Shown here: in pieces, positions 17,688 to 57,176 of the stretch | How positions within the stretch are numbered: the first letter of the stretch is position 1 | Layout of the letters: every line of letters starts with the position of its first letter | Virus record (IMG/VR): IMGVR_UViG_3300031555_006012 | Direction: 5' to 3' (one strand) | Length of the DNA: 64,000 nt | DNA from: an uncultured virus (IMG/VR IMGVR_UViG_3300031555_006012) | Taxonomy: Duplodnaviria > Heunggongvirae > Uroviricota > Caudoviricetes | The notes under the pieces: model-generated | The model's input: the letters and a program-made list of their open reading frames with translations, nothing else | Database searches by the model: none | What the model was told of the DNA's origin: nothing | Translations under genes and position numbers: made by a program

Positions 17688-17716
17688 ATATTACCTCTGA
17701 ACTCCGATAATAGCCA
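17688..17716 (-). promoter_or_regulatory. AGAG-type promoter core upstream of recombinase (TGGCTA-N17-TAATAT)
   Basis: Degenerate copy of the repeated promoter core, followed by ACTAACCAAAGGGAGG. Confidence 0.5.
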
Positions 17717-17721
17717 GTTAT

Positions 17722-17883
17722 TTATCGGAAAATAGTAGACGATGTTACACCGTATTTTTTGGTCATAATTGTATCAATTATTGCGTACTCTTCAGTGGAA
17801 ATCACATGTTTTGACAGCATTTCGTTGGCAATCGACATGGCAGCTCGATACCTCTCAATGCGGCTTCTCAGATCCTCATCCAC
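17722..17883 (-). CDS. Small SHOCT-like protein
   Basis: GTG after GGAGG; ML..HVIS.EEY..I...M..KY motif. Confidence 0.65.
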   Translation of the reverse strand: MDEDLRSRIERYRAAMSIANEMLSKHVISTEEYAIIDTIMTKKYGVTSSTIFR

Positions 17884-18277
17884 GGTTTGCACCTCCCGTC
17901 CGGGATGCCTGGTAGCATGCCGGGGAACAGAACTTTCGGCCTGCATCGCCATAGCTGTCGAACTCTTTACCGCACTGCTGACAGCGTTTGTGGTAGAAAG
18001 CCTGTCTGTTCATCTTGTCCCGGTTGTCCTTCCACCAGGCCATGCGGCACTGATCAGAGCAATACAGCTTCTGCCGCTTATGCGGGGTCTGCTCGATACG
18101 CTTGCCACAGAAGCGGCATGTTGGTTCGACCACTTCAGCCAGAACCACAGGGTTGCGGCGGCAGAAGGTTTTCACAGAATTGAGCGGCAGGCCCGTCACG
18201 GTAGCAATCCGCTTATAGCCCAGGCCCTCGCGCTGCATCTTCATGATTTGGGCGCGTTCGGTGTCAGTCATAAGCAC
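17876..18277 (-). CDS. HTH plus zinc-finger regulator
   Basis: GLGYKRIATVTGLPLNSVKTFCRR; two CxxCGK...FCSxxC units. Confidence 0.8.
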   Translation of the reverse strand: MLMTDTERAQIMKMQREGLGYKRIATVTGLPLNSVKTFCRRNPVVLAEVVEPTCRFCGKRIEQTPHKRQKLYCSDQCRMAWWKDNRDKMNRQAFYHKRCQQCGKEFDSYGDAGRKFCSPACYQASRTGGANRG

Positions 18278-18359: not shown

Positions 18360-18462
18360 GCCATAAACCACACAATCACCGATCTGGATATTTGTGTAGT
18401 TTATGGCTCGGATATAACTTGCTATTTTGGCCTTTCAGAGCGAATATGTGTACTACCAAAAG
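18360..18462 (+). promoter_or_regulatory. Repeated element copy H (48-bp inverted repeat + TTGCTA-N17-GAATAT)
   Basis: GCCATAAACCACACAA-N16-TTGTGTAGTTTATGGC then TTGCTA at 18419. Confidence 0.8.
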
Positions 18463-18493
18463 GGTGAACACCCAACTCAAGGAGGACAAAGCA

Positions 18494-18865
18494 ATGACAA
18501 GATTTGAAAGAGAACTGAACGGTAGCCTGGGCGCTTACTGGAAGGCAGAGGCAGAGAAGGAGCTGGCAAGGGTCAAGGCAGACCTGGACGCAGGTAAGAT
18601 CACCATCGACGAGAACGGCATCGCCCGGAACTGCATCGGTCGGATCCTGATGGCGGACATGCTGGAGAAGCTGGCCATGATCACCGACCAGGTTGACACC
18701 GAGGCAACCACCGCCGCCAGGGAGGCCGAAGTTGCAAAGGAGCTGGCAGAGTACCGCAACAGAAAACGCAGCCACAGCCGCGAAGAGCTGGCCCAGATGC
18801 GGGCAGCATTCGGCCCCGGGGCAACGGTGGTCGATGTCCTTTCCGGCGAGAAGATTAGGCTGTAA
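18494..18865 (+). CDS. Hypothetical protein (cassette gene)
   Basis: AAGGAGG RBS; C-terminal MRAAFGPGATVVDVLSG motif. Confidence 0.75.
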   Translation: MTRFERELNGSLGAYWKAEAEKELARVKADLDAGKITIDENGIARNCIGRILMADMLEKLAMITDQVDTEATTAAREAEVAKELAEYRNRKRSHSREELAQMRAAFGPGATVVDVLSGEKIRL

Positions 18866-42803: not shown

Positions 42804-44405
42804 TTAGATAAACAAAATGCCCCGGTCGTCATAGACCGAAGCACTGGTGTCGTTGCCACATCTGATCGCCCGGTCCAACGCCATCACTGTTGCAACAGCT
42901 CCGTCGATCTTTTCTGTGGATTTTTCTTTGTCGGGTTTAATATTGCCCGCTGGGTCGGTGCGGATGAAGATGTTATCCATCATCCAGCGCAACACTGGGT
43001 GACCGCCGTGAGCGATTCGCTCTTCCAGAACGAGCTTCATAAGCTCCTTGGTAGGGGGCGACATGTCTTTGAAGCCCTGGCCAAAAGGAACCACGGTGAA
43101 GCCCATACCCTCCAGGTTTTGTACCATCTGAACAGCGCCCCAACGGTCAAAGGCAATTTCGCGGATATTGAACTTCTCGCCCAGACGCTCAATGAACTTT
43201 TCTATGTAGCCGTAGTGGACCACATTGCCTTCCGTGGTCAGAAGGCATCCTTGTTTCTCCCAGACATCGTATGGTACATGGTCGCGCCGGACACGCAGAT
43301 CCAGGTTGTCCTCCGGGATCCAGAAGTATGGCAGTACCGTGTATTTGTCATCTTCGTCCTCCGGGGGGAAGACCAGGACAAATGCTGTGATGTCGGTGGT
43401 GGAGGAAAGGTCAAGACCACCGTAACACACACGGCCTTCCAGGGCTTCTTCATTTACAGCGAACGCGCATCGGTCCCATTTCTCCATGGGCATCCAGCGC
43501 ACCGCCTGCTTGACCCACTGGTTCAAACGAAGCTGCCGGAAGCTGTTCTCTTCGGCGGGGTTCTGCTTGGCGGACTCACAGGCGGCTTTGACTTTGTCGA
43601 TGCCGACCGTGATGCCGAGGGAGGGGTTGGCCTTCTTCCAGGTCTTGGGGTCGGTCCAATCGTCGTTCTCATCCGCGCCGTAAATCACCGGGTAGAATGT
43701 CGGGTCGATCTTCCGGCCTTCCAGAATGTCCTTGGCTTTCTGGTGGGTTTCATAACAGATGGAGCGGGTATCAGTTCCGGCTGTGGTGATGAGGAAGTAC
43801 AGAGGCTGCATACGAGCGTCACCGGACCCCTTGGTCATAACATCAAAGAGCTTTCGGTTAGGCTGGGTGTGCAGCTCGTCAAAAACGACGCCGTGGATGT
43901 TGAAGCCGTGTTTGGAGTAGGCTTCAGCGGACAAAACCTGATAGAAGGAGTTGGTGGGGGTGTAGACGATCCGTTTCTGGGAAGCAAGAATTTTCACTCG
44001 CTTTGCCAGGGCGGGACACATCTTCACCATATCTGCCGCCACATCAAAAACGATAGCGGCCTGCTGCCGATCGGCGGCACAGCCGTAGACCTCGGCGCGT
44101 TCCTCGCCGTCGCCACATGTGAGCAGAAGGGCCACGGCGGCAGCAAGCTCCGATTTACCCATCTTCTTTGGAATCTCAATGTAGGCGGTGTTGAACTGGC
44201 GGTAACCGTTGGGCTTAAGGGTTCCGAACAGGTCGCGGATGATCTGCTCTTGCCAGTCGATCAATTCAAAGGGCTTTCCAGCCCAGGTGCCTTTGGTGTG
44301 GCACAAGCATTCAATAAAGCCGACCGCATAGTCAGCGGCTTCCTGATCATAATGGGAGCCTTTGGCCATGAACTTGGTCGGCTTGTACTTTTTCAGCTTT
44401 CGGAT
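42804..44405 (-). CDS. terL: Terminase large subunit (probable ATC start at 44405; first ATG 44369)
   Basis: IPKKMGKSEL Walker A, VVFDELH Walker B, GGLDLSSTTD, KIDGAVA. Confidence 0.96.
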   Translation of the reverse strand: MRKLKKYKPTKFMAKGSHYDQEAADYAVGFIECLCHTKGTWAGKPFELIDWQEQIIRDLFGTLKPNGYRQFNTAYIEIPKKMGKSELAAAVALLLTCGDGEERAEVYGCAADRQQAAIVFDVAADMVKMCPALAKRVKILASQKRIVYTPTNSFYQVLSAEAYSKHGFNIHGVVFDELHTQPNRKLFDVMTKGSGDARMQPLYFLITTAGTDTRSICYETHQKAKDILEGRKIDPTFYPVIYGADENDDWTDPKTWKKANPSLGITVGIDKVKAACESAKQNPAEENSFRQLRLNQWVKQAVRWMPMEKWDRCAFAVNEEALEGRVCYGGLDLSSTTDITAFVLVFPPEDEDDKYTVLPYFWIPEDNLDLRVRRDHVPYDVWEKQGCLLTTEGNVVHYGYIEKFIERLGEKFNIREIAFDRWGAVQMVQNLEGMGFTVVPFGQGFKDMSPPTKELMKLVLEERIAHGGHPVLRWMMDNIFIRTDPAGNIKPDKEKSTEKIDGAVATVMALDRAIRCGNDTSASVYDDRGILFI

Positions 44406-44424
44406 AGTTGGTCACCTCCAGATC

Positions 44425-44740
44425 GAGGGGTTGTACCTTTGCGGTATAGGGTGTCGTACCCTTTACGGTTAAGGGTGTCCTCCCCTTTGCGGTAATAGGG
44501 GGTTACCCCTTTGCGGTATAGTGTACCGGGGGTTGCGGTTAGGTGTGTTCATGGGATCACATACCTTACGGTAAAGGGGTGTGTACCTTGCGGTTAGAAG
44601 TGTTCGGGGGCAGCGGTTAGAGGTGTAGCCCCCTTTGCGGTTAAGGGTGACGGGCCTTTACGGTTAAGGGTGATTACCCTTTGCGGTTACGGGTGACCCC
44701 CCTTTGCGGTAGAGGGTGTAGGAGGGGTTGCGGTAATTGA
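44425..44740. repeat. Tandem array of 13 units, about 23-bp period, core CCTTT(G/A)CGGT
   Basis: Cores start at 44436, 44460, 44484, 44508, 44530, 44563, 44585, 44608, 44632, 44655, 44678, 44701, 44725; distal copy 44845. Confidence 0.9.
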
Positions 44741-44879
44741 TACAAGGGTTGTGGGTGGTGACGCAACCCTTGTGGCTTTTGATGGGGTGCTTCTTGGTGG
44801 TTGGGAAGCGCCCCATCGTTTTGTATTCAGAAAGGGTGTCTACCCCTTTACGGATAAATAACAAAAAGGAGTGTTTTAC

Positions 44880-45125
44880 ATGTCAAAAGTTCTTCAGTGT
44901 AAAGATTGTACGCGGGTGTTTTCCTTCTCGGATGAAGATCAGTGTAGATTCCAGCAGCGCGGGTGGAAAGACCCCATTCGCTGCAAGCGGTGCATCGCAA
45001 AGGCAAAGGAGCGCCGCCAGAATCCGTACTGGGGATGGGAGACCACCATGGGTGATGATCTCCATGCTCCCAAGGGCCACAGACGCGTGAATTACCCGTT
45101 CCATGTAGTGGGCGGTTTCAAATAA
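44880..45125 (+). CDS. Zinc-ribbon protein (zf-trcl-like)
   Basis: LQCKDC...F.FS..DQ..F..RGW..PIRCKRC; AAGGAG RBS. Confidence 0.8.
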   Translation: MSKVLQCKDCTRVFSFSDEDQCRFQQRGWKDPIRCKRCIAKAKERRQNPYWGWETTMGDDLHAPKGHRRVNYPFHVVGGFK

Positions 45126-45137
45126 GGAGGTGACGAT

Positions 45138-45269
45138 ATGTTGACACTAATTGCGACGCTCATTGTGTGGGCAATCATCCAGGCGTTGTGCGGGAAGAAT
45201 CCCGGGCCGCTGATGGTCCTTTTTATCCTGTACGCAATTCTTAGCCTGGTAGCAGAAATCATGTACTAA
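45138..45269 (+). CDS. 43-aa two-TM membrane peptide (below ORF-track cutoff)
   Basis: AAGGAGGTG RBS; MLTLIATLIVWAIIQALCGKNPGPLMVLFILYAILSLVAEIMY. Confidence 0.75.
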   Translation: MLTLIATLIVWAIIQALCGKNPGPLMVLFILYAILSLVAEIMY

Positions 45270-45281
45270 TGGAGGTAGCGT

Positions 45282-45644
45282 ATGAATAACGAAAACTACG
45301 AAGCACAGGAACTGGACGAACTGATCGAAAGTATCAGCCAATGGATTCTTGAGGACGAAATGAAGCCGGGAATTCTAAACCCGCCAAGGGTGCAGCAGAT
45401 GCGGTTTTCCCACTCAGTCATGAAGAGGCTGACAACAGGCTCTGCAATGCAAGTCACATACACAATGCACGATCCCTTCCCGAGCATGGGGAGCATCACC
45501 GTGGAGGGTGATCACCTGGCATTCTCGGACTGCAAGTGGCTGGGGCGGGCGCTGGAGTTTGCCAGCAATGTGGAAGTGTATCCACTGAGCAACGGCGGGG
45601 TTCGGATGGTTTTAACTTTCCATGGCCTGGTAAAAAGGGCATGA
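45282..45644 (+). CDS. Hypothetical protein
   Basis: GGAGG RBS; operon-coupled. Confidence 0.7.
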   Translation: MNNENYEAQELDELIESISQWILEDEMKPGILNPPRVQQMRFSHSVMKRLTTGSAMQVTYTMHDPFPSMGSITVEGDHLAFSDCKWLGRALEFASNVEVYPLSNGGVRMVLTFHGLVKRA

Positions 45645-45744
45645 AAAAAAGCGACCCAACGGTCGCAATTCCTGAAGTGTGCCTCATGGTCAAACGCCAC
45701 GAAGCGTTGTAGCATGGTAGTAACCATTTGAAAGGAGTGCCGCC

Positions 45745-46014
45745 ATGCGTATGCAAAAAAGAGACATAATGAAAAAAGCCCTTCAGCAAGTAAATGCTGT
45801 AGAGCTGAAATGTTATCGTGAGAGAAACCAATTGACACAAGAGGCGATGGCCTCGCGGCTCAGGATGAATGTCCGAACCTACATTGACTTGGAACACGGG
45901 GCCAATCTGCCCAGCGCTACCACGCTCGCCCTGCACCTCACCTCGCTCCCCAAAGAGGAACAGGCGCGGTTCCTGGCCGCGGTAAAGGCGGCTGAGGAAC
46001 AAGCTCTGGGTTAG
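45745..46014 (+). CDS. XRE-family HTH protein
   Basis: LTQEAMASRLRMNVRTYIDLEHGANLPS. Confidence 0.85.
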   Translation: MRMQKRDIMKKALQQVNAVELKCYRERNQLTQEAMASRLRMNVRTYIDLEHGANLPSATTLALHLTSLPKEEQARFLAAVKAAEEQALG

Positions 46015-46316
46015 ATCCGAACCAGGGCAGCGTAGCGGGGGTAGTCGTAGCCGTCGCTCTGGACCGCAATGGCGGTGCGCTTGGTGCCTGCCTTGCGAAC
46101 CAGGATGCAGCGAAAGGTTCCGTTGACAACGCCTGTGTTCTGGGTGTGCTTGGCGATGAAATCGTAGTCGTCGTAAAGGTTCTCGGCGAAGCTGTCGAAG
46201 TTGGCCTTGGGGAGGGTGACCTCTGCGATCACCTGGATCTCGGCCTCATCGCCGTGCTTCTGGGCGCTTTTCAGACTGTCCAGGTTGATGGGCTTCCGTG
46301 CAAAATGTCCTCTCAT
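46011..46316 (-). CDS. Small cassette protein
   Basis: F.RKP...CILV...IAVQSDGYDYPRYAA motif; GGAGG RBS. Confidence 0.7.
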   Translation of the reverse strand: MRGHFARKPINLDSLKSAQKHGDEAEIQVIAEVTLPKANFDSFAENLYDDYDFIAKHTQNTGVVNGTFRCILVRKAGTKRTAIAVQSDGYDYPRYAALVRI

Positions 46317-46328
46317 GTCCGTTCCTCC

Positions 46329-46520
46329 TTACTTGCTGCTCTTGCCGAGTTCGTATGCTGCCTTGAGGGCGTCCATCAGGCCCCAAACCGGGACTTCGAT
46401 GAAGTCGTCGCTGTCGTTGTGAAGCTCTTCCAGGTGGCCCTGGAAGTCGACCGCTGCCATGCGGGCTGCTGCGATTTCGTAAAGCTGCTTTTCCAGTTTC
46501 TGCATTTCCTTCTTGCTCAT
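46329..46520 (-). CDS. DUF6900-like small protein
   Basis: LE..HNDSDDFIEV.VW.L..AL.AAYELG. Confidence 0.7.
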   Translation of the reverse strand: MSKKEMQKLEKQLYEIAAARMAAVDFQGHLEELHNDSDDFIEVPVWGLMDALKAAYELGKSSK

Positions 46521-46546
46521 TTTGTGTTCCTCCGTAATGTGTTTTC

Positions 46547-46683
46547 CTTTTGGTAGTACACATTATTGCTCTGAATGCAGAATATAGCAAGTTATATCTA
46601 AGTCATAAAGTACACAAAGATTGGGCTGCAGTATGGTGTATATTATGGCGACAACGAGGAACAGAGCCTTTCGGCTCCGTCCC
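46547..46683 (-). promoter_or_regulatory. Repeated element copy A with upstream terminator hairpin
   Basis: Arms 46602-46617 and 46634-46649; TTGCTA-N17-AATAAT. Confidence 0.8.
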
Positions 46684-46695
46684 AGGGGGAGTTGC

Positions 46696-46890
46696 TTACT
46701 TCTCCCTATGGGTCTTGGTGGGGATCGGGGGCTTCCCGGTAGTCAGCCATGCAAGCCAACACTGCTTGCAACTAACCAGGTCGCATTGAACCTGGCCGTC
46801 CCGCTCGAAGGGCGGGTGGCCCTTGCCGAACATCTCTGCCAGCTCCTCCGGGGTGGAGGATGCAAAGATCTCCATACCAGTTTTCGCCAT
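46696..46890 (-). CDS. Small cassette protein with Cys motif
   Basis: GGAGG RBS; C...SCKQCWLAWL. Confidence 0.65.
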   Translation of the reverse strand: MAKTGMEIFASSTPEELAEMFGKGHPPFERDGQVQCDLVSCKQCWLAWLTTGKPPIPTKTHREK

Positions 46891-46902
46891 GTGTACACCT
46901 CC

Positions 46903-47247
46903 TTACTTCCAGATGATTTCATAGCCCAGCCGCATCAGCTCCCGGATCTGGGTTACCAACTGATAGCTGACCATGTTCTCTTTCAGGGCGCAGGCTACGC
47001 TCATTCCCCAGTCTCCTTTACGCTCGGGATCCAGGTAAATGACATAGGCCTCGCCGCCGTCGCAGTAGCTGCTCTTTTCCTCGTAGGCCACACGGGCCAA
47101 GGGGCGGGCCTCACGGCGCTCATGCTCGTCGAGGATGTCGTACAAGCACTCGCCGTAAATGTCCTCCACCAGGGCGTCGACGCGGTCAGTGGCGCGGAAC
47201 AGGCCAGCGGCCTCCAGCTTCTGATTGAGTAGTTCGGTTTTCTTCAT
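46903..47247 (-). CDS. Small cassette protein
   Basis: GGAGG RBS downstream of element B. Confidence 0.7.
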   Translation of the reverse strand: MKKTELLNQKLEAAGLFRATDRVDALVEDIYGECLYDILDEHERREARPLARVAYEEKSSYCDGGEAYVIYLDPERKGDWGMSVACALKENMVSYQLVTQIRELMRLGYEIIWK

Positions 47248-47289
47248 GTTAGGTTCCTCCAGTTGAAATGTAATGTACCCCTTCGGGTC

Positions 47290-47417
47290 ATGTACATATT
47301 CGCTCTGAATGCCCTAAATAGCAAGTTATATCTGAGGCGTATACTACACAATGATTTCGTCCAGATATTGTGTAAATTATGGCTATAAGCCGGAACAGAG
47401 CCTTCTGGCTCCGTCCC
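47290..47417 (-). promoter_or_regulatory. Repeated element copy B with upstream terminator hairpin
   Basis: Arms 47336-47351 and 47368-47383. Confidence 0.8.
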
Positions 47418-47437
47418 AAGGGAAGTGCTGCGGGGTG

Positions 47438-47653
47438 TTATTTGATGCGCTGGATGTTCAGGGTGTGGTTCCGAGTAACCCGGATCCAACCGTCGTCCAT
47501 CAGCTTACTGCCATCGCTGCTCTGTACCTTAAAGGCCATGTCGAACGGCAGGGTTCTACTTCCGTCGTAGCTGATGATGACCTTGCCATCCTTCAGCTCG
47601 ACCTGATCGGCGTTGATGATAATCTGCATACATACACCCCCTTTCTCAGTCAA
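47438..47653 (-). CDS. Small cassette protein (start uncertain)
   Basis: Operon-coupled ORF. Confidence 0.55.
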   Translation of the reverse strand: MTEKGGVCMQIIINADQVELKDGKVIISYDGSRTLPFDMAFKVQSSDGSKLMDDGWIRVTRNHTLNIQRIK

Positions 47654-47948
47654 TCTTGACCGCGATGCTGTATCCGGCTGCGTCGAGGGCGCTTGCCAAT
47701 TTCAGCGGTTCGTCGGGAGTGTGGGTATACCCGTAGGAGTCGACCCAGCCAGCTTCCTTCTTCGTATAAAGGAAAATCGTGGGGGCGCAGCCTTCGTGGG
47801 TAATGGTAAGCGTAAGCTGCATGCCCAGGGGGAGGGTGTCCTCAATCGCCCGCCAGGTGTGGTGAAAGGTGGGGGTGTAAGGAACGCGGATGGGGTCTGC
47901 GCTGTTGCTGACCAGGTTGCCGGATGCGTTGGTGTAGGTGATCGCCAT
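47646..47948 (-). CDS. Small cassette protein
   Basis: ATG 47948 after AAGGGG. Confidence 0.55.
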   Translation of the reverse strand: MAITYTNASGNLVSNSADPIRVPYTPTFHHTWRAIEDTLPLGMQLTLTITHEGCAPTIFLYTKKEAGWVDSYGYTHTPDEPLKLASALDAAGYSIAVKID

Positions 47949-47961
47949 ATCCCGTGCCCCC

Positions 47962-48159
47962 TTACCGCTTGCTGCGGATCTCGGTCCGCTTGGCCTGCTG
48001 GGCGTTATAAAGGACCATGAAGTCCTCCCAGGAGATTTTGTAGCTGCTGCAATCCTGGGAAAATTCAATGCGGATGCCTTCGATCTCGTTCCGATCGGTG
48101 CAGGTCTCGATGCGCTTCAGGTAGGTGGCGGCTCTCTTGCTCAGTTTCTGCTTTTTCAT
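47962..48159 (-). CDS. Small cassette protein
   Basis: GGAGG RBS downstream of element C. Confidence 0.7.
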   Translation of the reverse strand: MKKQKLSKRAATYLKRIETCTDRNEIEGIRIEFSQDCSSYKISWEDFMVLYNAQQAKRTEIRSKR

Positions 48160-48175
48160 GTTGGGGTCCTCCGTT

Positions 48176-48314
48176 CCTTTTGGTAGTACACATATTCGCT
48201 CTACTTGCCCGAAATAGCAAGTTATATCTGAGGCATAATGTAAACAAAGATCGCGGAAGGAAACTGTGTATATTATGGCACTATACGAAGAAAAGAGCCG
48301 CGAGGCTCTCTTCT
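48176..48314 (-). promoter_or_regulatory. Repeated element copy C with upstream terminator hairpin
   Basis: Arms 48232-48247 and 48264-48279. Confidence 0.8.
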
Positions 48315-48331
48315 GTATGGTGGGGTAAAGG

Positions 48332-48694
48332 TTAGGCGCGGACCAGCCGGATGGCGGGAACCTTGGCCCGCTCGTTGGTGGCCCAGTCGTTGTAGTTGGC
48401 ATTGACCTGGGTCAATCCGTCCATCTTGAATCCCTGTGCTTCAAAGGCTGCCAGGGTGGTAATCAGGCTGGAGAAATTGCTGCTGATCGTGAACTCGGTG
48501 ATGCCGTTGGCATCGAAGGCGGCGGCGATGGCCTCAATGTCCTCATCCCAAATGACCTCGTTGAAGTCGATCAGGCTGTTGCCGTTCTGAATGCTGCGGC
48601 GGTAAGCCCAGAAGGCGGTGGGGTTGATGCCCTCGGCGCGGATGTCCTTGACCTGGTTGGCGATGGCGTTCTCGAATGCTGCGATCTTTTTCAT
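48332..48694 (-). CDS. Conserved phage cassette protein
   Basis: WAY..S...IDFNEVIWD...GITEFTISS.FSSLI motif; GGAGG RBS. Confidence 0.75.
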   Translation of the reverse strand: MKKIAAFENAIANQVKDIRAEGINPTAFWAYRRSIQNGNSLIDFNEVIWDEDIEAIAAAFDANGITEFTISSNFSSLITTLAAFEAQGFKMDGLTQVNANYNDWATNERAKVPAIRLVRA

Positions 48695-48717
48695 GGTGTG
48701 TACCTCCGTTTGTTTTG

Positions 48718-48849
48718 TTGTACACATATTCGCTCTACTTGCCCGAAATAGCAAGTTATATCTGAGCCATAAACTACACAAAGATGCAGCGCAGAGAGTG
48801 TGCATATTATGACGCTATACGAGCAAAAGAGCCGCGAGGCTCCTTTGCT
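48718..48849 (-). promoter_or_regulatory. Repeated element copy D with upstream terminator hairpin
   Basis: Arms 48766-48781 and 48798-48813. Confidence 0.8.
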
Positions 48850-48866
48850 GCTGTGCGGTTGGTGTA

Positions 48867-49190
48867 TCAGTACCCCATCTTGCGAACCCGGCGCTCAACT
48901 CGCTCCATCAACCATTCCTTTCCGCAGAAGCGGACATCCTTCATGAAACTGGAGGCTTCCTGGTTGAACTGGACGAATCCGTCGCCGTAAATGCTGTGGG
49001 TGGCTTCGTCATAGATCGCACTAACCAAACCATCGTGGTCGGCAAGTGCAGCCTTGGCGCTCTGGTACTCTTCGCTGTCTTCGGGGTTGTCCTGGAGCGT
49101 GTTCTCCAGTCCACCGATCGTGAACCGAGCTGCGTAGAGAATGTTGCGGAAGGCCTTCTGCTGGCGGGCGTTCATGTCTGCGTATTTCAT
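48867..49190 (-). CDS. Small cassette protein
   Basis: GGAGG RBS downstream of element E. Confidence 0.7.
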   Translation of the reverse strand: MKYADMNARQQKAFRNILYAARFTIGGLENTLQDNPEDSEEYQSAKAALADHDGLVSAIYDEATHSIYGDGFVQFNQEASSFMKDVRFCGKEWLMERVERRVRKMGY

Positions 49191-49227
49191 ATTCAAATCC
49201 TCCGAAAATGTGTTGTTCCCCTTGGGG

Positions 49228-49322
49228 TATGCACATATTCGCTCTGAATGGCTGAAATAGCAAGTTATATCTGAGCGATAAACTACACAATGATTTGGGG
49301 CCGGAATCGTGTAATTTGTGTA
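49228..49322 (-). promoter_or_regulatory. Repeated element copy E
   Basis: Arms 49275-49290 and 49307-49322 (one degenerate). Confidence 0.75.
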
Positions 49323-49323
49323 G

Positions 49324-49608
49324 TTATTCGGCGGCGGGATCCGTTTCCAGAATGGCCAGAATCATCTGGCCTCCAAGCCGGAAGCCTTCAATAAAGCCGT
49401 CCTCCTCAATCAGGGAGTCCAGGTAGTGGTGTTCGGCGATGTAGCTCTCGAACATGGCTTTCTGCTCCGGGGTGAGGGTTTTGCGAAATTCATCTGCCCG
49501 GTCGGCGGTTAACCGATCCTGAGCATACCGCTTGGTGGTCTTGTCGATGTTTCGGGAGCAGGGGTCGATCGCTCCACCGTACAAGTCGGAAATCAACTGG
49601 CGCAGCAT
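49324..49608 (-). CDS. DUF6809-like protein
   Basis: I.DLY.G.I.P...GFIEGFRLG. Confidence 0.7.
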   Translation of the reverse strand: MLRQLISDLYGGAIDPCSRNIDKTTKRYAQDRLTADRADEFRKTLTPEQKAMFESYIAEHHYLDSLIEEDGFIEGFRLGGQMILAILETDPAAE

Positions 49609-49793
49609 CAGCGTACCTCCCCAGTCAGAATGAAATGGCAGTACACTTCGCGATTGGCACGGGTCTTGAGGAATTCCACAAGGTCGTCAAAGCCCAGCTC
49701 AAAAGCGACCTGGTTAACCATGCGAATGTCGAACATGTTTGTCCGGCCAGTTTCACGCACTGCCAGAATTTGCTTACGGATGGTCTCGCTCAT
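49608..49793 (-). CDS. DUF5049-like protein
   Basis: ILAVRETGRTNMFD...Y.HFILTGE. Confidence 0.8.
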   Translation of the reverse strand: MSETIRKQILAVRETGRTNMFDIRMVNQVAFELGFDDLVEFLKTRANREVYCHFILTGEVR

Positions 49794-50248
49794 CGCTTTC
49801 CACCTCCAACGCTATCCGCAACGCCCCGCTCAAGGAACGCCGGGTCCAGGCCGTTATCACGATAGCCTTGCAGGATCGTGTTGTAGTAAGTGTAGCTCGG
49901 ACCGCCCAGGGGCCTGCCGTCATTCATGATGTAGACCATTGCCTTGGTGGGAATGCCATCCAGGTTGACCGTTACCGTTTCCTTGCGGTAGAGGAAGGGG
50001 TAGCCTTCGTAGTAGTCCAGGTTCTGCTCGTCCTTGGGGGAAATGGTCCAGAGCAGCACCGGGACCTGGTTGCCCTTTTTGGGCTCCACGGTGGCGACAG
50101 CGCCGCGCTGCCCGCCCCGGAACAGCAACTGGTAGTCCTGGAGCATTGCGGTACCCAGGCGCTTAGCGTCGGGACAGCGGCGCGACATTTGGCCCAGGTG
50201 CAGGTTGCTGCCGTAGGCCAGGTAAATTCTCTGCTTTTTTCTGTTCAT
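49790..50248 (-). CDS. Gamma-glutamylcyclotransferase-family protein
   Basis: YLAYGSNL...M.RRCP; LDYYEGYP. Confidence 0.9.
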   Translation of the reverse strand: MNRKKQRIYLAYGSNLHLGQMSRRCPDAKRLGTAMLQDYQLLFRGGQRGAVATVEPKKGNQVPVLLWTISPKDEQNLDYYEGYPFLYRKETVTVNLDGIPTKAMVYIMNDGRPLGGPSYTYYNTILQGYRDNGLDPAFLERGVADSVGGGKR

Positions 50249-50334
50249 ATTCGTTCCTCCTTTAGTCAGGGTTTGTTACCCTTCTACCACCTTAAGCCCG
50301 CCGAGGCGGGCAAGGGGGCCTGTGGCTAAGACCT

Positions 50335-51282
50335 TCAAGCAGCTCTGCCGCTGCGGAAGGCTGCGTCGCCGTCCAGGCGCTTGGTGTAAAGGTCCCGAGC
50401 TGTTTTGAACTCGTCGCCAATGAAACCCAGTCGGAGGAGCCAGGTGCGCATTGCGTACTTGGGGTTTTCAGTCTGCTGGGGCTTGGGGCTTGCGGAGCGG
50501 ACATCCTTTGCCATCTGGCTCAGTGCGAGGCAAAGCTGAATGTAGCTCTTGAGCTGGCCTGCGTGGAGGCCGTTCTGCTTGCCGTTTGCGGGAGCGTCGA
50601 ACTGGAAAAGTCTGAACTCAACCGTACCCTTTGTAAAGGTAGCGTGGAGGTTAAGCATGTGGTAGCGGCTGTCGTTGTAGTGGGTGTCGCGATCGTAGGA
50701 AGTGCCGTGGGAAGAATACCAAAGGTCGGAAAGATCTTCCAGGGTATCGGGCTTGTCCTGGTTTACTCTGGCGAGGAAAACCGGGTCGACCGTCTGGCAG
50801 TAGCGATCCATGCGGTTGCGGTCCAGGTTGAGGGCGCTTGCCAGGAGGCTTTCGTGGCTTGCCATGATGTTTGCCAGGTTCCGCAGGGTCCGGGCTGTGT
50901 GGCCCTTCGCGCCGATGTGGATGTGAACACCGCAGCCCCGGGTGGCGTCGCTCTTGGCTCCGGCCTTCCGCAGCTTGCGGATCAGCTCCTGGAGGGTTTC
51001 GATGTCGGCGTAGGTCAGAATCGGGGTGACCAGTTCGCACTTCTCTTCGCTGGGGCCGTGGATGCTGCTGTCGCGCTGGAATTTCCACTCGCGATCCTGA
51101 GCGTCCCATGCGCTCCAGGTTGCGTAGCCGTTGCGGTAGGCGGTGTCCGCGCTTCTGTTGGTGCCGAAATACTCGGCGGCGATCTTTGCAGCCCTCTCGC
51201 GGGTGATGTTGTTCATCTCGACCTCAACTCCGATGGTCTGCTTCTTCATTTCCTCAATCTGCTTTGCTACCTTTGCGTTCAT
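50335..51282 (-). CDS. Amidoligase (COOH-NH2 ligase type 2) family protein
   Basis: TIGVEVE, DSSI, ELVTPIL, CGVHIH, RY..LN, TVEFR. Confidence 0.9.
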   Translation of the reverse strand: MNAKVAKQIEEMKKQTIGVEVEMNNITRERAAKIAAEYFGTNRSADTAYRNGYATWSAWDAQDREWKFQRDSSIHGPSEEKCELVTPILTYADIETLQELIRKLRKAGAKSDATRGCGVHIHIGAKGHTARTLRNLANIMASHESLLASALNLDRNRMDRYCQTVDPVFLARVNQDKPDTLEDLSDLWYSSHGTSYDRDTHYNDSRYHMLNLHATFTKGTVEFRLFQFDAPANGKQNGLHAGQLKSYIQLCLALSQMAKDVRSASPKPQQTENPKYAMRTWLLRLGFIGDEFKTARDLYTKRLDGDAAFRSGRAA

Positions 51283-51312
51283 GCTATTTACCTCCGTAAA
51301 ATATGTGTTTTC

Positions 51313-51416
51313 CCTTTTGGTAGTACACATATTCGCTCTGAATGGCGTAAATAGCAAGTTATATCTGAGGCATAATGTACACAATGTTTCGGGGGCGAAA
51401 CTGTGTATTTTATGCC
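51313..51416 (-). promoter_or_regulatory. Repeated element copy F
   Basis: Arms 51369-51384 and 51401-51416. Confidence 0.8.
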
Positions 51417-51640
51417 TTTTTATCGGTGATTTTCTTACAAATGTCGACACCGTACACGACATTCAGCCCGGAGCCGTTATCCCAGTTAACGAGGATGCTG
51501 CCGATGGCGTCAACGCCGATCACAGTACCCTTGGTGCCGGGTGGCGGTGCTTGCGGATCGTCCATCTGGACCAGCTCCACGCGAGTGTCCTTGGGAAAAC
51601 TCTCCCGGAGGGCAGCGATGATGGAAGGATGAGGTCTCAT
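51410..51640 (-). CDS. DUF4314-like protein
   Basis: RVEL..MDDPQAPP.GTKGTV..VD..G.I.V.WDNGSGL. Confidence 0.85.
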   Translation of the reverse strand: MRPHPSIIAALRESFPKDTRVELVQMDDPQAPPPGTKGTVIGVDAIGSILVNWDNGSGLNVVYGVDICKKITDKKA

Positions 51641-51650
51641 ACTGATCTCC

Positions 51651-52445
51651 TTAGTTCTGCTCGTTCAGCTGGTGAATCAGGGCAGCATCGGCGAGGGCCT
51701 CGGCCAGGACCGGGTCCATATTTTCCGGGATTGCCAACGAGTTACCGGGAGCTTCTGCCTGATCGGCCTTTCGGGAGCCGCTCTTGAAAGCGGAGCTGCC
51801 GGAGAGGTTGGCCAGGAGAATCTTCCGTTCGGCTTTGAACTCATCGCCGATAAATCCGAGCCGGAGGAGGAAGCAGCGGAATGCGTACTTGTCGCTTTCG
51901 GCGGGTTTTTCCTTGGCAGTAACCCGCTTCTGCTTCCGAGCCATCTCACACATGGCTGCAATCAGCTTGGTGCAGGCTCCGATCTGTTCGGGGGTGGCGT
52001 CCGCGCGGATCCAGGGGAAAGTGACCGTCTCCTCGCCAATTTCAATCGGCAGGGTTTCAACACCCAGGGACTTCTTGATGAGGTGGGCCTTGGCGTCGGT
52101 CAGCTTCTGGATGTTGTCCAGGGCGCTCTCGGTGAAGGTGCTGCGGGGCATCGCAACACAACCGAAATCCTCGGTGGCGGGTTCTGCTGCGGCTTCGGCT
52201 GCAACCTCAGGTGCGTTTGCGGCGGTGAACCCTACCTCGCGCAGCTCCGCAATAAGCTGCTCGGTGGCGGCGGGGTCTGCCTGTTCGCCGGGAGTGACCG
52301 CGCCGTTTTTGTCGACATGGTAGGGGCCAACCTGGTAGGCAAAGCTGGGTGCGCCCAGGTACTTTGCGTCTTCTCCGGCGATGGCGGAGATGGCCTTGAC
52401 CAGGTCTTTGCGGGTGGTGCCAGTGCAGTTGAATTCGTAAGTCAT
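51651..52445 (-). CDS. Conserved phage hypothetical protein
   Basis: YLGAPSFAY; KYAFRCFLLRLGFIGDEFK, a tail also shared with the amidoligase. Confidence 0.8.
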   Translation of the reverse strand: MTYEFNCTGTTRKDLVKAISAIAGEDAKYLGAPSFAYQVGPYHVDKNGAVTPGEQADPAATEQLIAELREVGFTAANAPEVAAEAAAEPATEDFGCVAMPRSTFTESALDNIQKLTDAKAHLIKKSLGVETLPIEIGEETVTFPWIRADATPEQIGACTKLIAAMCEMARKQKRVTAKEKPAESDKYAFRCFLLRLGFIGDEFKAERKILLANLSGSSAFKSGSRKADQAEAPGNSLAIPENMDPVLAEALADAALIHQLNEQN

Positions 52446-52467
52446 TGTTGTGACCTCCTTGTGTTTT

Positions 52468-52565
52468 TTGGTAGTCACATATTCGCTCTGAATGGCCATA
52501 ATAGCAAGTTGTTTATCGACCAGACTATGTACAATAATCGGGCGGCAAATTGTGCATATTATGGC
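52468..52565 (-). promoter_or_regulatory. Repeated element copy G (degenerate arm, 15-bp spacer)
   Basis: TTGCTA-N17-GAATAT; arm 52550-52565. Confidence 0.7.
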
Positions 52566-52576
52566 CAGTCAGGAAA

Positions 52577-53827
52577 TTAGAAAAGAGGAATCTGGGACTC
52601 GTCTTCCACGATCTCGTCGTAGGCGTAGGTCAGACCGTCGCGGACAACGGACACGCCCGTGGAGCTGCCGACCTGCTCAATGTAACGGCGAACGATCACA
52701 TCACAGAACTTCTCGTCCAGTTCAATGGTGTAGCAGATGCGGTCGGTCTGTTCGCAGGCGATCAGAGTGGAGCCGGAGCCGCCGAAGGGGTCCAGGACAA
52801 CGCTGTTACTCATGGAAGAGTTCATGATGGGATAGGCCAGCAGAGGGATGGGCTTCATGGTGGGATGATCACCGTTTTTCTTGGGCTTGTCGAATTCCCA
52901 AATGGTGGTCTCCTTCCGACCAGTGTACCACTGGTGCTTGCCGTTCTTCTTCCAACCATACAGGCAAGGCTCGTGCTGCCACTGATAGGGAGACCGCCCC
53001 AGAACCAGGGATTGCTTCTTCCAGATGCAGCAGCCGGACAAATAAAAACCCGCATCGGCAAAAGCCTTGCGGAAGTTCAGCCCTTCGGTATCAGCGTGGA
53101 AAACATAAATGGACGCGTCATCAGCCATAGCGCCGTGCATCTGGGTGTACGCATCCAGAAGAAAGTTGTAGAAGGCATCGTTGGCCATGTTATCATTCTT
53201 GATTTTGCCAGCGGAACCTTCATAGTTCACATTGTAGGGAGGGTCCGTAATGACCAGATTGGCTTTGGTACCGTTCATCAGGAGGTCATAGGTTTCAGCC
53301 TTCGTGCTGTCGCCACAGACCAAGCGGTGACGGCCCAGCTTCCAAACATCGCCGGGTTTGGAGAAGGTGGGGTTCTTCAGCTCATCCTCCACATCGAAGT
53401 CGTCGTCTTTGACTCCATCCTTGACGCTGTCCTTAAACAGGTCGTCGATTTCGGCGGGGTCAAAACCAGTCAGGGACACATCGAAATCGGTACCCTGGAG
53501 ATCGGTGATCAACAGAGCCAACTTCTCCCGGTCCCACTCGCCGGAGATCTTGTTCAGGGCGATGTTGAGGGCTTTCTCTTTCTCCTCGTCCATTTCGACC
53601 ACAACGCAGTCAACTTCGGTGATGCCCATGTCCTGGAGAACCTTCAGGCGCTGATGACCACCGACCACACGGCCAGTAACCTTGTTCCAGATAACAGGCT
53701 CCACATAGCCGAACTGCTCAATAGAGCGTTTCAGCTTCTCGTACTCAGCGTCGCCGGGTTTCAGGTCTTTTCGGGGGTTGTAGTCAGCGGGCAGAAGCTC
53801 CGAGGTGTGTTTCTTTTCAATGATCAT
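52577..53827 (-). CDS. ParB-like domain + N4/N6 DNA methyltransferase
   Basis: YNPR, VVGGHQRLK; TDPPYN; HPTMKP; LDPFGGSGST. Confidence 0.93.
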   Translation of the reverse strand: MIIEKKHTSELLPADYNPRKDLKPGDAEYEKLKRSIEQFGYVEPVIWNKVTGRVVGGHQRLKVLQDMGITEVDCVVVEMDEEKEKALNIALNKISGEWDREKLALLITDLQGTDFDVSLTGFDPAEIDDLFKDSVKDGVKDDDFDVEDELKNPTFSKPGDVWKLGRHRLVCGDSTKAETYDLLMNGTKANLVITDPPYNVNYEGSAGKIKNDNMANDAFYNFLLDAYTQMHGAMADDASIYVFHADTEGLNFRKAFADAGFYLSGCCIWKKQSLVLGRSPYQWQHEPCLYGWKKNGKHQWYTGRKETTIWEFDKPKKNGDHPTMKPIPLLAYPIMNSSMSNSVVLDPFGGSGSTLIACEQTDRICYTIELDEKFCDVIVRRYIEQVGSSTGVSVVRDGLTYAYDEIVEDESQIPLF

Positions 53828-54606
53828 ACCAGACCCCACTCGGCGAATTTCTCAAAGCCGCCAATGGTGCGGATGAAAAGTCTCGCCGTTTCCACGATCT
53901 CATCGTAAGGGATACCGTTCACGGTTTCGTCGCCGATGGCGCAGCACAGCTCGATCGGGCGACCAGTACGCTGGGCTTCCAGCCAAGCATAGATATTGAC
54001 GCTCACATCTGCCTTGGACAGGTCCTTGCCATGCAGACCGCCGCCCGTAACAGAGTCAGCCATATCGCTGCCCAGCTTGCGGTTGGTAGCACCAGTGTCA
54101 ACATCGGTGCCGCCTGTCCAATCGCCCAGGGGATTGACATGTGCGGTCGGGTACAGACGGTTCAGCAGCTTGGAGCCGACATTGCTCTGGCAGATGATCA
54201 GCCGATCTCCATCCAGAATGTACTTGCCGTCATGAGGGCAAACATCGTAAATATCCCGGGCGATCCGGGAGAGGGTTCTCTGCTCGGCGGTCACAGGGAC
54301 ACCTTTGAAGATGCCGTTGTCACCGCATCGGAAACCCTTACTCTGGTTTTTTGCCAGGTGTTCGTCCTGGGGGGTGATCTGGATATCAGCCAGAAGGTTG
54401 CCACCGATGCGGTAGATGGCTCGGGCGACTTCCTTCTCTACCAGAGGAGCAGAAGTTTCAATGACCGCATGGCACACGCCATGTCCGATCAGCACCTCAA
54501 CTGCGATTTTGGGATCGTCCTGGGCGGCATAAGCCAGATCCACGATGGCTCCAGCGATCCTGTCCGCTACCTTGTCGGGGTGAGCGGGATTAACTTTTTC
54601 AAACAT
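53824..54606 (-). CDS. Short SAM synthetase (MetK)-like protein
   Basis: HPDKVADRI, GDNGIF, DGK, DTGATNRKL, GGGLHGKDLSKAD. Confidence 0.85.
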   Translation of the reverse strand: MFEKVNPAHPDKVADRIAGAIVDLAYAAQDDPKIAVEVLIGHGVCHAVIETSAPLVEKEVARAIYRIGGNLLADIQITPQDEHLAKNQSKGFRCGDNGIFKGVPVTAEQRTLSRIARDIYDVCPHDGKYILDGDRLIICQSNVGSKLLNRLYPTAHVNPLGDWTGGTDVDTGATNRKLGSDMADSVTGGGLHGKDLSKADVSVNIYAWLEAQRTGRPIELCCAIGDETVNGIPYDEIVETARLFIRTIGGFEKFAEWGLV

Positions 54607-54629
54607 GAAAGATCCTCCATTGTATTGAT

Positions 54630-55187
54630 TTACCGAGAGTTGCCCCTGCGAGCTTGAAGCAGACGTTCCATTGCATCGTCTTGGGGAGTGGAACCGCTGT
54701 ATTCGCCGGAGCAGTTCTCTTTGACGATTTGAAAGATCTCCATCCACAGACGGTTGGTCTGGGACATGAAGTTCTGACTCATAGCAACATAGGGGCTTTG
54801 GATCGCATTGCCCGTAGTGGGGTGCTTGGCTAGGAAACCGTACTCGGTAACGGCTTCTTCGCACTGGATCCAACGCGCCACGCTCATGGCGTAGCGTTCC
54901 AGAAGCTGCGGCGAAACCAGAGCGGTGCAGCGACGCTCTGCGAGCCACAGCCAAGTGGCTTCGTAGACATCAGCAGCGATCAGCTTCTTGCCGTCCTTCT
55001 GGGTGGCGGACAGCATGGCAGAGGGCTTGGGCATGGGCTGACCTTCTAAATCGGCTGTGTTTTCAAAGTCGATGACAGTCAACTTCCGTTTGCCCGGATT
55101 TCCATCTGCAATTTTGTCGGCGAGAGGCTTCTTCTTCGCTCCAGCTCCGACACGAGCGCCGCCACGGTTCGTACCGTCTTTTGCCAC
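54630..55187 (-). CDS. terS: Terminase small subunit (P27 family)
   Basis: RGGAR.GAG.K, GNPGKR, SPYV. Confidence 0.88.
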   Translation of the reverse strand: MAKDGTNRGGARVGAGAKKKPLADKIADGNPGKRKLTVIDFENTADLEGQPMPKPSAMLSATQKDGKKLIAADVYEATWLWLAERRCTALVSPQLLERYAMSVARWIQCEEAVTEYGFLAKHPTTGNAIQSPYVAMSQNFMSQTNRLWMEIFQIVKENCSGEYSGSTPQDDAMERLLQARRGNSR

Positions 55188-56771: not shown

Positions 56772-57176
56772 TTAGGGGACCGTCACAGTTTCCAAAGCAT
56801 TCCTGTGCATGCGGAAGGTATGGTCGATGCTGTACCCCATCTCAACGGCGATCTGCTCCCAGGGCTTGAAGCACAGGTAGCGCAGTTCCAGAAGGGTCTG
56901 GAATTCGGGGTTCTTCACGGACTTGATAACCGCCACCATGTCACGCTTCAGATCGATCAGCTGATCAATGTCAGCATTGATGTCGTTTTCCAGGTCCACG
57001 ATTTTGACGATGATGTCCTGCATGCGATGCACATTGGGGCTTGCGCTTCCGGGCATGTCGCTCATGGTGGCGGTGGCCTTGGTGGTCAGGTCACGCAGGG
57101 CCATAACCTGCTCCAGCTTGCTGTTGATACGCTGGTCAAGGCGATATGCCTGGTTGAGATATTCTTTTGCGGTCAT
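56772..57176 (-). CDS. RinA/ArpU-like late transcriptional regulator
   Basis: AKEYL.Q; LLELRYL...WEQIA.EMGYS....R.H..AL. Confidence 0.85.
   Translation of the reverse strand: MTAKEYLNQAYRLDQRINSKLEQVMALRDLTTKATATMSDMPGSASPNVHRMQDIIVKIVDLENDINADIDQLIDLKRDMVAVIKSVKNPEFQTLLELRYLCFKPWEQIAVEMGYSIDHTFRMHRNALETVTVP

Follow-up and report, generated by a model that had tools for sequence, protein, structure and literature searches.

What controls, and what moves, a row of small-gene cassettes that all begin with the same inverted repeat? This question is raised by a 64,000-nt stretch of DNA from an uncultured tailed virus (IMG/VR record IMGVR_UViG_3300031555_006012; Caudoviricetes), hereafter referred to as the window, in which seven cassettes on the minus strand, from 52565 to 46011, each follow a repeat-and-promoter element that we term the head. 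An earlier note on this DNA had explained the fixed spacing of the repeats by protein-DNA recognition, either by an activator or at recombination sites for integron-like exchange, with homologous recombination between repeats as an alternative. Our analysis favours a reading in which each head is a composite regulatory element served by a putative dimeric regulator, while homologous recombination between heads shuffles the cassettes; we put the probability of this reading as a whole at roughly 60%.

A repeated head precedes each cassette

Read along the gene strand, the shared head consists of the inverted repeat, an 11-nt gap, the promoter-like block TTGCTA-N17-GAATAT, a leader hairpin and a ribosome-binding site (RBS). 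The repeat has the minus-strand consensus (G)CCATAAnnTACACAA-N16-TTGTGTAnTTTATGGC. The 17-nt spacer between the -35 and -10 elements ends in AGAGC, the -10 element is GAATAT (AATAAT in one copy), and the leader mostly opens with GTGTAC and is followed by GGAGG and ATG.

We searched the window with the promoter pattern AACTTGCTAT-N11-AGAGCNAATAT, allowing up to three mismatches, and obtained nine matches against a mean of 0.00 in 100 shuffles: eight on the minus strand (52479, 51329, 49235, 48726, 48192, 47296, 46562 and 17688) and only one on the plus strand (18416). A profile built from units of related phages recovered the same nine copies at E <= 1.1e-9, the next match having E = 1.4. Trained on 45 repeats from other phages, a weight matrix of the arms alone found seven sites in the window and none in the shuffled window; the repeat at 52519-52565 was missed by this fixed-spacing matrix because its spacer is 15 bp long. 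Moreover, a repeat search of the window returned a 74-nt family with seven copies and a 130-nt family with six. The repeated heads are thus confirmed as a real feature of the window, and the pattern and profile searches recovered the seven array copies and the eighth near 18360 that had been listed before; the ninth copy (17688-17719), which has the promoter alone and no repeat, was absent from that list.

The geometry is equally regular. TACACAA-N16-TTGTGTA is present in seven of the eight window repeats (N15 in one), and the gap between repeat and TTGCTA is 11 nt in all eight repeat-bearing units, of which five were resolved by script and three were read from the sequence and alignment. This agrees with the spacer, gap and following promoter described in the earlier note. 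The constant central G that it had also reported holds in the window, where all seven N16 copies have C, on the gene strand, at spacer position 9, but not among relatives: of 50 repeats, at least 26 have C at that position and 17 have G. GC-rich hairpins (-16.5 to -21.0 kcal/mol) precede four of the seven array heads (46562, 47296, 48192 and 48726) and form two matching pairs with short T-tails, again as described earlier; the other three heads have only weak folds at the upstream position. Cassettes carry one to four genes each, the same range of mostly small genes as first noted. The heads and cassettes are as follows.

52446..52565, minus strand: head 1; repeat 52519-52565 (15-bp spacer), -35 TTGCTA 52502-52507, -10 GAATAT 52479-52484; leader with a GTGAC/GTCAC hairpin flanking the RBS
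51410..52445, minus strand: cassette 1, two genes: a 264-aa amidoligase-like protein (51651-52445; PHROG 2443, no Pfam match) and DUF4314 (51410-51640; family match)
51283..51416, minus strand: head 2; repeat 51369-51416, promoter 51329-51360, then the leader hairpin
49324..51282, minus strand: cassette 2; Amidoligase_2 (50335-51282), GGACT/AIG2 cyclotransferase (49790-50248), DUF5049 (49608-49793), DUF6809 (49324-49608)
49191..49330, minus strand: head 3; repeat 49275-49322 with a degenerate left arm, promoter 49235-49266; an extra, perfect left arm reaches to 49330, 25 nt from the right arm and about 10 bp (about one turn) further out
48867..49190, minus strand: cassette 3; 107-aa protein, no family match
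48695..48845, minus strand: head 4; GC-rich hairpin (-20.4 kcal/mol), repeat 48766-48813, promoter 48726-48757; leader with GTGTAC...GTACAC flanking the RBS
48332..48694, minus strand: cassette 4; DUF7698 protein, 120 aa
48160..48310, minus strand: head 5 (85% identical to head 4 over 130 nt); hairpin (-16.5 kcal/mol), repeat 48232-48279, promoter 48192-48223
47438..48159, minus strand: cassette 5; proteins of 65, 100 and 63 aa, the last with a weak DUF6799 match
47248..47420, minus strand: head 6; hairpin (-21.0 kcal/mol), repeat 47336-47383, promoter 47296-47327
46696..47247, minus strand: cassette 6; 114 aa and 64 aa, no family match
46521..46690, minus strand: head 7; hairpin (-20.9 kcal/mol), repeat 46602-46649, promoter 46562-46593, -10 AATAAT
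46011..46520, minus strand: cassette 7; DUF6900 (46329-46520) and a 101-aa protein with a weak DUF6329 match (46011-46316)
18361..18865, plus strand: eighth unit, divergent from the helix-turn-helix (HTH)/zinc-ribbon gene 17876-18277; repeat 18361-18407, promoter 18416-18447, 123-aa gene 18494-18865
17688..17719, minus strand: ninth copy, promoter only, directly past the stop codon of the SHOCT_2 gene (17722-17952) and before the large serine recombinase gene 16296-17660, which it is predicted to drive

The repeat resembles a protein-binding site rather than a hairpin

Of the 276 non-redundant units whose geometry we further compared, 147 have the repeat, 140 of them with a 16-bp spacer and seven with one of 15 bp, and the distance and orientation of the repeat to the promoter are fixed in 147 of 147. 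Relative to ACTTGC, the right arm starts at -25/-24 in 134 repeats and at -35 in 13, with no other class. Since the two classes lie 10 bp apart with none between them, the only tolerated shift is one helical turn.

Pairing between the arms and within the spacer was analysed on 50 unique repeats. Core positions are 86-100% conserved and complementary, a complementarity that follows from the conservation of both arms. At the variable arm positions, 4.28 complementary pairs were observed against 4.28 expected from column composition, a value reached by 2663 of 5000 permutations, and symmetric pairs in the spacer (1.58 of 8) compare with 1.77 in shuffles. Between the two arms, the consensus differs both in the inner flanks and in the outer halves, and the spacer is flanked asymmetrically. 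When applied to six whole relatives, the repeat matrix matched cassette heads only and none of the other intergenic regions; in the window it found no repeat-like site elsewhere, including beside the integrases. The absence of pairing selection, together with two half-sites at fixed distance and phase, points to a predicted double-stranded binding site for a dimeric DNA-binding protein rather than a hairpin. With its fixed geometry, conserved arms and free spacer, the repeat would fit the earlier suggestion that the fixed spacing reflects protein-DNA recognition.

Two further observations concern the repeat itself. The copy in head 2 (51369-51416) is the sole window repeat with a self-complementary spacer and can form a near-perfect 21-bp hairpin with a 4-nt loop. 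As a probe, the two 7-nt repeat cores alone (14 bases) proved unspecific, matching 119 viral stretches of which only four had an adjacent promoter, and were discarded; their matches are thus no guide to free-standing repeats.

It is very improbable that the repeat acts as an RNA or single-stranded DNA hairpin, whether as a processing site, an attenuator or a single-strand promoter of the plasmid-leading-region type. The 16-nt arms could pair, head 2 giving its near-perfect hairpin, and the cassettes are co-directional within the late region, so that read-through RNA would include the repeat. However, the arms lack covariation, the spacer lacks pairing and the outer arm halves differ in consensus, while the -35 and -10 elements lie outside the repeat. 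No Rfam family was matched either: a scan with Rfam 15 gave 0 matches at gathering score in the window, and two chance-level ones at E up to 1 in 46000-52700. Moreover, all contexts examined belong to tailed phages and not to a conjugative element; Frpo-type single-strand promoters differ on both counts, given that the promoter here is outside the repeat and the contexts examined are tailed-phage packaging modules.

The promoter is atypical and the leader folds

In a sigma-70 scan, TTGCTA matched 4/6 and GAATAT 3/6 of the consensus (7/12 together), and only head 7 (46562) of the seven array units passed a threshold of >=9/12, which bears out the earlier description of an atypical core promoter. 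Relatives also carry the variant TGGATA + TAATAT. None of the other sigma-factor and activator consensus motifs compared with the head by eye fitted it. Downstream of the promoter, the leader folds from its first bases (nucleotides 1-3 paired) in 71 of 111 distinct leaders compared with 290 of 1110 shuffles. The stems vary while complementarity is kept (GTGTAC/GTACAC, GTGAC/GTCAC, GTGT/ACAC), and from this pattern the leader hairpin looks like an RNA feature.

The promoter may not be a sigma-A promoter at all: the ACTTGCTAT-N11-AGAGCGAATAT block could instead be the site of a phage-specified factor, either a sigma-like protein or a polymerase specificity subunit. RNA would then start at the G after AATAT with the hairpin at its extreme 5' end, and the repeat would serve as an accessory enhancer. 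Conservation runs unbroken up to the base before the hairpin, a sigma-70-type promoter has no use for the invariant AGAGC, and the hairpin takes in the first G and T. Such phages also encode sigma region-4-like proteins (DUF1492), and the exact motif is kept in phages whose hosts belong to different Bacillota classes (Oscillospiraceae, Lachnospiraceae, Anaerovibrio, Selenomonas, Acetobacterium). We nevertheless consider this unlikely: no polymerase gene was recognised for this role among the 83 open reading frames (ORFs) of the window that were scanned, DUF1492 occurs in only 12 of the 23 long viral records with the head, the motif is absent before terS, terL and the structural genes, and a -35/-10 spacing of 17, like the A and the final T kept in the -10 element, fits sigma-A.

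Probable homologous recombination between heads

Cassette content differs among relatives. The heads form direct repeats of about 110-130 bp, and cassettes could therefore be gained, lost or swapped by homologous recombination. One case can be followed in detail. Where relative G002 has two heads around a cassette, L086 has a single chimeric head, which follows head A from the repeat past the promoter into the early leader, and head B thereafter. The crossover lies inside the leader, within a 23-nt stretch identical between both heads. Judged from this junction, a cassette was deleted or inserted through homologous recombination between direct repeats, in an event bounded by two heads, as the alternative in the earlier note would have it.

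We then compared flanks over 182 units with long flanking sequence, and found that 51 pairs share both sides, five the upstream side only and 19 the downstream side only. In the downstream-only pairs a homologous head (75-98% identity) stands between the differing and the shared flank, and homology starts at the outer left-arm edge (10 pairs), at -44 (one), in the gap between right arm and promoter (three) or in the promoter (five). In the upstream-only pairs it ends in the leader (three) or just past the start codon (two). Breakpoints within 8 bp of the repeat centre were found in 0 of 24 pairs (0/19 and 0/5, respectively), and both repeat arms stay with the downstream gene across the mosaic pairs. 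The comparison of cassette content and breakpoints that the earlier note called for thus gives variable content with breaks at the outer edge of the repeat, in the promoter region and in the leader. These sequence comparisons support homologous recombination between heads as what probably moves the cassettes.

Sites of large serine recombinases (att sites) have a size and an imperfect dyad symmetry like those of the roughly 48-bp repeats, a resemblance behind the other proposal, namely that the element's own serine recombinases use the repeats for integron-like capture and exchange of cassettes. The window does encode two large serine recombinases plus recombinase fragments, and cassette content is variable. 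Yet both arms travel with the downstream gene, no breakpoint falls near the centre, and the resolved indel crossed over in the leader and not in the repeat. In addition, the central bases vary among repeats, the position and orientation of the repeat towards the promoter are invariant, and the integrase promoter itself has no repeat. As to att sites at the element ends, no matrix match lies outside the heads in the window, the right end of the prophage being beyond it. With the breakpoints off the repeat centre and the indel bounded by heads, we therefore rejected this att/integron reading, which we regard as highly unlikely.

Other comparisons had less resolution. By blastn, the array is only 67-82% identical to six whole relatives, too distant for breakpoint mapping. 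In three runs, pieces of metagenome contigs that match the window exactly extend over the cassettes (word depth about 4-8) and end at the heads, as repeats cause assemblies to do. The joints at head edges (for example 44338-46653, 46682-48698, 48715-52466) have sides of <30 letters or undetermined letters between the sides and come from contigs, and we did not count them as evidence of exchange or of circles.

A proposed composite regulatory head and the direction of control

Taken together, we propose that each head would be a composite regulatory unit for an independent, moron-like accessory transcription unit. The GC-rich hairpin, present in four of seven copies, would end the previous unit. 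The 47-48-bp pseudo-palindrome, made of two AT-rich arms of about 15 nt and a free 16-bp spacer, would be bound by a putative dimeric regulator. A sigma-A-like, sub-consensus promoter with the invariant AGAGC before its -10 element would follow 11 bp on (21 bp in some relatives), and the short leader, with the RBS after it, may fold into a hairpin. The predicted regulator would act on RNA polymerase from one face of the helix, with activation favoured, as at phi29 p4 or class I sites, and the repeat-bearing cassettes would constitute one regulon. Recombination between heads would add, delete and swap cassettes, as the promoter-early stem-loop (PeSL) motifs do in T4-type phages. We lean towards activation because the repeat lies wholly upstream of the -35 element, its helical phase is kept and the core promoter is weak.

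Several observations weigh against this reading. The promoter is a sub-consensus sequence match, and the sigma-70 consensus scan found two sites against 3.1 expected. The leader hairpin begins at the G directly after GAATAT, too near the -10 element for its 5' arm to be in the transcript; therefore either the predicted start and -10 assignment are wrong or the hairpin serves read-through transcripts. The core promoter stands without a repeat in 129 of the 276 units, for example before integrase and c1a-type genes of relatives, and the two -10 forms are distributed over both sorts (GAATAT in 141 units with and 110 without the repeat; TAATAT in 4 versus 9). GAATAT being common in both, the repeat is not simply a crutch for a weak -10 element, and we rejected the idea that it compensates for a poor one. 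A TGTGTA-like word occurs at the start region in 89 of 146 units with the repeat versus 30 of 129 without it (relatedness uncorrected), an association that would fit repression through a third contact, or a looped complex, as well as activation. No universal regulator candidate emerged from co-occurrence among the 23 records. As for shuffling, only one clean one-cassette indel was resolved, and the 24 mosaic pairs are non-independent, some of their 'breaks' possibly being plain divergence.

Some of these points could also be read in favour of a repressor operator, which would keep the cassettes silent in one phase, such as lysogeny, and let them fire jointly at entry or induction as early counter-defence or DNA-modification genes. 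The conservation of the core in units that lack the repeat suggests that it may work unaided, and the third TGTGTA-like word lies across the start region. Domains with a link to DNA modification are also at hand, in the methylase and SAM-synthetase-like (S-adenosylmethionine synthetase-like) genes upstream of the array, in the amidoligase and, among relatives, in Nmad4. On the other hand, a right arm that ends 11 bp before the -35 element occupies the usual position of an activator, and the 10-bp alternative offset is what face-of-helix activation predicts, although looping would predict it too. The TGTGTA association is moreover confounded by kinship among units heading the same gene families. 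We regard repression as rather unlikely, and hold to no more than a regulator site that would unite these cassettes in one regulon, with a leaning towards activation.

Among the proteins considered as regulator, the HTH/zinc-ribbon protein has homologues in 14 of the 23 records and in 11 of the 15 near-complete ones. DUF1492 (window gene 56772-57176) scored above cut-off in seven of the 12 records that have it, and 149-153-aa proteins at its position in relatives gave faint sigma region-4 hints in three of five (E 0.03-0.09). The XRE gene beside the array (45745-46014) has homologues at 2 of 136 loci and in none of the 15 array stretches that we compared. The phi29 p4 family had no match when the 83 window ORFs were scanned against Pfam.

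Two of these genes have noteworthy surroundings. The HTH/zinc-ribbon ORF (17876-18277, PHROG 2308) overlaps the SHOCT_2 ORF (17722-17952) by 77 nt in a different frame on the minus strand, and the gene order HTH/zinc ribbon, SHOCT, promoter, serine recombinase is found again in relatives. The XRE-type HTH gene belongs to a plus-strand block between array and terL (44880-46014) that also encodes a treble-clef zinc-finger protein and proteins of 43 and 120 aa, and that has no counterpart in the 15 array stretches of relatives.

The array lies in a prophage that is probably of the Heliusvirales type

Gene content, taken from Pfam, PHROG and NCBIfam scans, identifies the window as a temperate tailed phage (prophage), probably of the Candidatus (Ca.) Heliusvirales type. 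The array occupies the gap between terS/methylase and terL, framed by the following genes.

54630-55187, minus strand: terS, upstream frame of the array (52577..55187)
53824-54606, minus strand: SAM synthetase N-terminal-like protein, upstream frame
52577-53839, minus strand: ParB_N-N6/N4 DNA methylase, upstream frame
42804..44369, minus strand: terminase large subunit, downstream frame

Along the minus strand from 64000, the order is a family A polymerase, a VapE-type primase/helicase, an SNF2 helicase and the DUF1492 regulator, then two HNH genes, terS, the SAM-synthetase-like gene, the ParB_N-methylase, the seven cassettes and the short plus-strand block. These are followed by terL, portal, protease, capsid, tail and lysin genes, and finally by the eighth unit, the HTH/zinc-ribbon gene, the SHOCT_2 gene and two large serine recombinases. 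The only GenBank phages that resemble it in their DNA or in their heads are 'NatCom' gut phages (12 of 13 records in one search and 20 of 21 in another, the remaining record of the 13 being MT837391, which is unannotated); NatCom_991 has the same gene order as the window and Ca. Heliusvirales in its taxonomy line. As listed in the part of the published description that covers them, the nine markers of this group are TerL, portal, major capsid, head protease, DNA polymerase I, helicase, nuclease and a further two whose function is unknown (PMC11283538). By Pfam, and not by the profiles of those authors, we found TerL, portal, capsid, ClpP-type protease, family A polymerase and SNF2 helicase in the window, with a weak VRR-NUC match for the nuclease. 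The nearest database record (G001) is an 18.8-kb fragment with integrase-side copies only.

Between terL and portal, 39275-41746 (minus strand) encodes a protein of 823 aa that combines a sialate O-acetylesterase (SASA) domain with several Ig-like (Big_2) domains, another accessory insertion within the packaging/head module of a gut phage. A serine recombinase ORF at 5559-7061 (minus strand) lacks the start of the catalytic domain, and a separate 167-aa ORF at 13461-13964 (plus strand) holds only such a start. Together they resemble a single gene that an inversion or insertion of about 6.9 kb has divided, and the segment between them contains XRE genes and metallophosphatases.

Distribution and cargo

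Using the exact head promoter pattern (22 specified bases), we detected matches in at least 136 IMG/VR stretches and in at least 137 stretches of species-representative bacterial genomes. Among the matches listed, Oscillospiraceae, Lachnospiraceae and other Clostridia made up most of the bacterial titles and Negativicutes some; a few short contigs from bins labelled otherwise are probably mis-binned. All 23 long viral records with the head have 1-5 copies each on a single strand per record, and the seven-plus-two copies of the window are the top of the range among relatives. In 15 array stretches from 14 viral records, promoter copies always lie within the terS/methylase-terL block, accompanied by c1a- or amidoligase-type genes (15/15), terL (14/15) and the ParB-methylase (12/15; three stretches end at a contig edge). 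The same context was present in four of four bacterial genomes examined (Ihubacter, Anaerovibrio, Acetobacterium and Blautia; 62 of 159 called ORFs scanned). All copies lie either in this plastic region, the terS/methylase-terL gap, or beside the integrase.

The cargo is diverse. First genes behind 170 non-redundant units with a callable first gene fell into 38 clusters, and of 28 representatives compared with Pfam, 22 had no match and six matched Nmad4, DUF7678, DUF6900, DUF6809, DUF4314 and Imm63 (below cut-off). The window carries amidoligase, gamma-glutamyl cyclotransferase and many DUF genes, and relatives add the nucleotide-modification-associated Nmad4; judged from these domains, the cargo would fit DNA modification or counter-restriction.

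Individual loci illustrate this diversity. The second-largest first-gene cluster (17 units; L003:1182-1457 and 16 other loci) has the Nmad4 domain and no member in the window. Within the window, the Amidoligase_2 protein and the 264-aa cassette-1 protein match one PHROG and are diverged paralogues in neighbouring cassettes, sharing a 75-nt stretch at 75% identity (50395-50469 versus 51825-51899). In L142 and L149 (G008 and G024), the amidoligase gene is split by a three-gene insertion (403, 326 and 340 aa) on either strand. One IMG/VR record of 88.9 kb (G016) contains two related phage copies whose arrays differ beside terL, with 106 + 108 aa in one and 96 aa in the other behind similar heads.

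Implications

Ca. Heliusvirales are among the most widespread phage lineages of the human gut according to their description (PMC11283538). In the main text of that article, 'promoter' and 'inverted repeat' have 0 occurrences, and our searches, which covered main texts only, found no published description of the head motif or of accessory-gene control. From its sequence conservation, the head would be a strongly conserved, apparently undescribed cis-regulatory element of a very common gut phage lineage. Almost all accessory genes of this lineage are without assigned function, and the head could be used as a sequence tag to locate and delimit accessory cassettes in gut phage genomes. The 48-bp site offers a defined bait for the regulator, and the head may be a natural portable expression cassette for Clostridia-type hosts. 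PeSL-type modular shuffling would also be extended from lytic T4-type phages of Gram-negatives to temperate phages of Bacillota.

More tentatively, heliusvirus-type gut phages might run a plug-in platform, in which a standard head is read by a factor that the phage itself supplies and doubles as a recombination portal. We consider this broader idea possible but doubtful. If true, the head would work unchanged in hosts of different Bacillota classes, and the platform would be an integrase-free counterpart of the integron for small counter-defence and DNA-modification genes.

Comparison with known systems

Morons of temperate phages are units with their own promoter and terminator inside a late operon. 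The cassettes resemble them as independent small units between conserved late genes, variable among relatives and with accessory cargo. Classical morons each have an unrelated promoter of their own, whereas here one head is reused before at least 38 first-gene clusters and in seven tandem copies. With integron attC arrays the cassettes share the layout of tandem, variable, co-oriented small units, each with an imperfect inverted repeat. The differences lie in a promoter for every cassette, a fixed repeat length, the absence of pairing selection and junctions outside the repeat; among the ORFs scanned we saw no tyrosine integrase, only serine recombinases.

PeSL cassettes of T4-type phages are described, in the sections of the reports on which we draw for this comparison, as mediating shuffling (Arbiol et al. 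2010, PMC2839356; Comeau et al. 2014, PMC4122927). According to those sections, a repeated intergenic motif joins a terminator hairpin to an AT-rich stretch before the -35 element, followed by promoter, RBS and start codon; its copies gather in a plastic region before small genes of unassigned function; and indels or swaps bounded by motif copies are ascribed to homologous recombination between copies. Here, likewise, nine aligned copies of a motif with a promoter end in an RBS and a start codon, and one indel and 24 non-independent mosaic pairs are bounded by motif copies. There are also differences from what is reported there: the PeSL phages are lytic T4-type myoviruses, whereas the window is a temperate siphovirus-like prophage of Bacillota; the PeSL promoter is the host sigma-70 consensus or close to it, but here it is below consensus (7/12); and the stem-loop is part of the PeSL motif, while only four of seven heads here have a hairpin. 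The fixed-geometry pseudo-palindrome without pairing selection has no PeSL counterpart in those sections and therefore points to a dedicated regulator.

For such a regulator site, phage phi29 provides the nearest model. A small dimer of its protein p4 binds CTTTTT-15 bp-AAAATG sites beside promoters and bends the DNA, as summarised in the relevant part of PMC3100819. On that account, both sites are imperfect inverted repeats with short conserved AT-rich arms and a non-conserved spacer (15 bp in phi29, 16 bp here), have two asymmetric halves and adjoin phage promoters, which are regulated ones in phi29. The arm sequences are unrelated, and phi29 has four p4 sites in a single control region in place of one site per cassette. 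The closest known analogues are thus the T4-type PeSL cassettes and the phi29 p4 sites, and by this analogy the head would unite features already known separately, namely a regulator site next to a promoter and shuffling motifs like the PeSLs.

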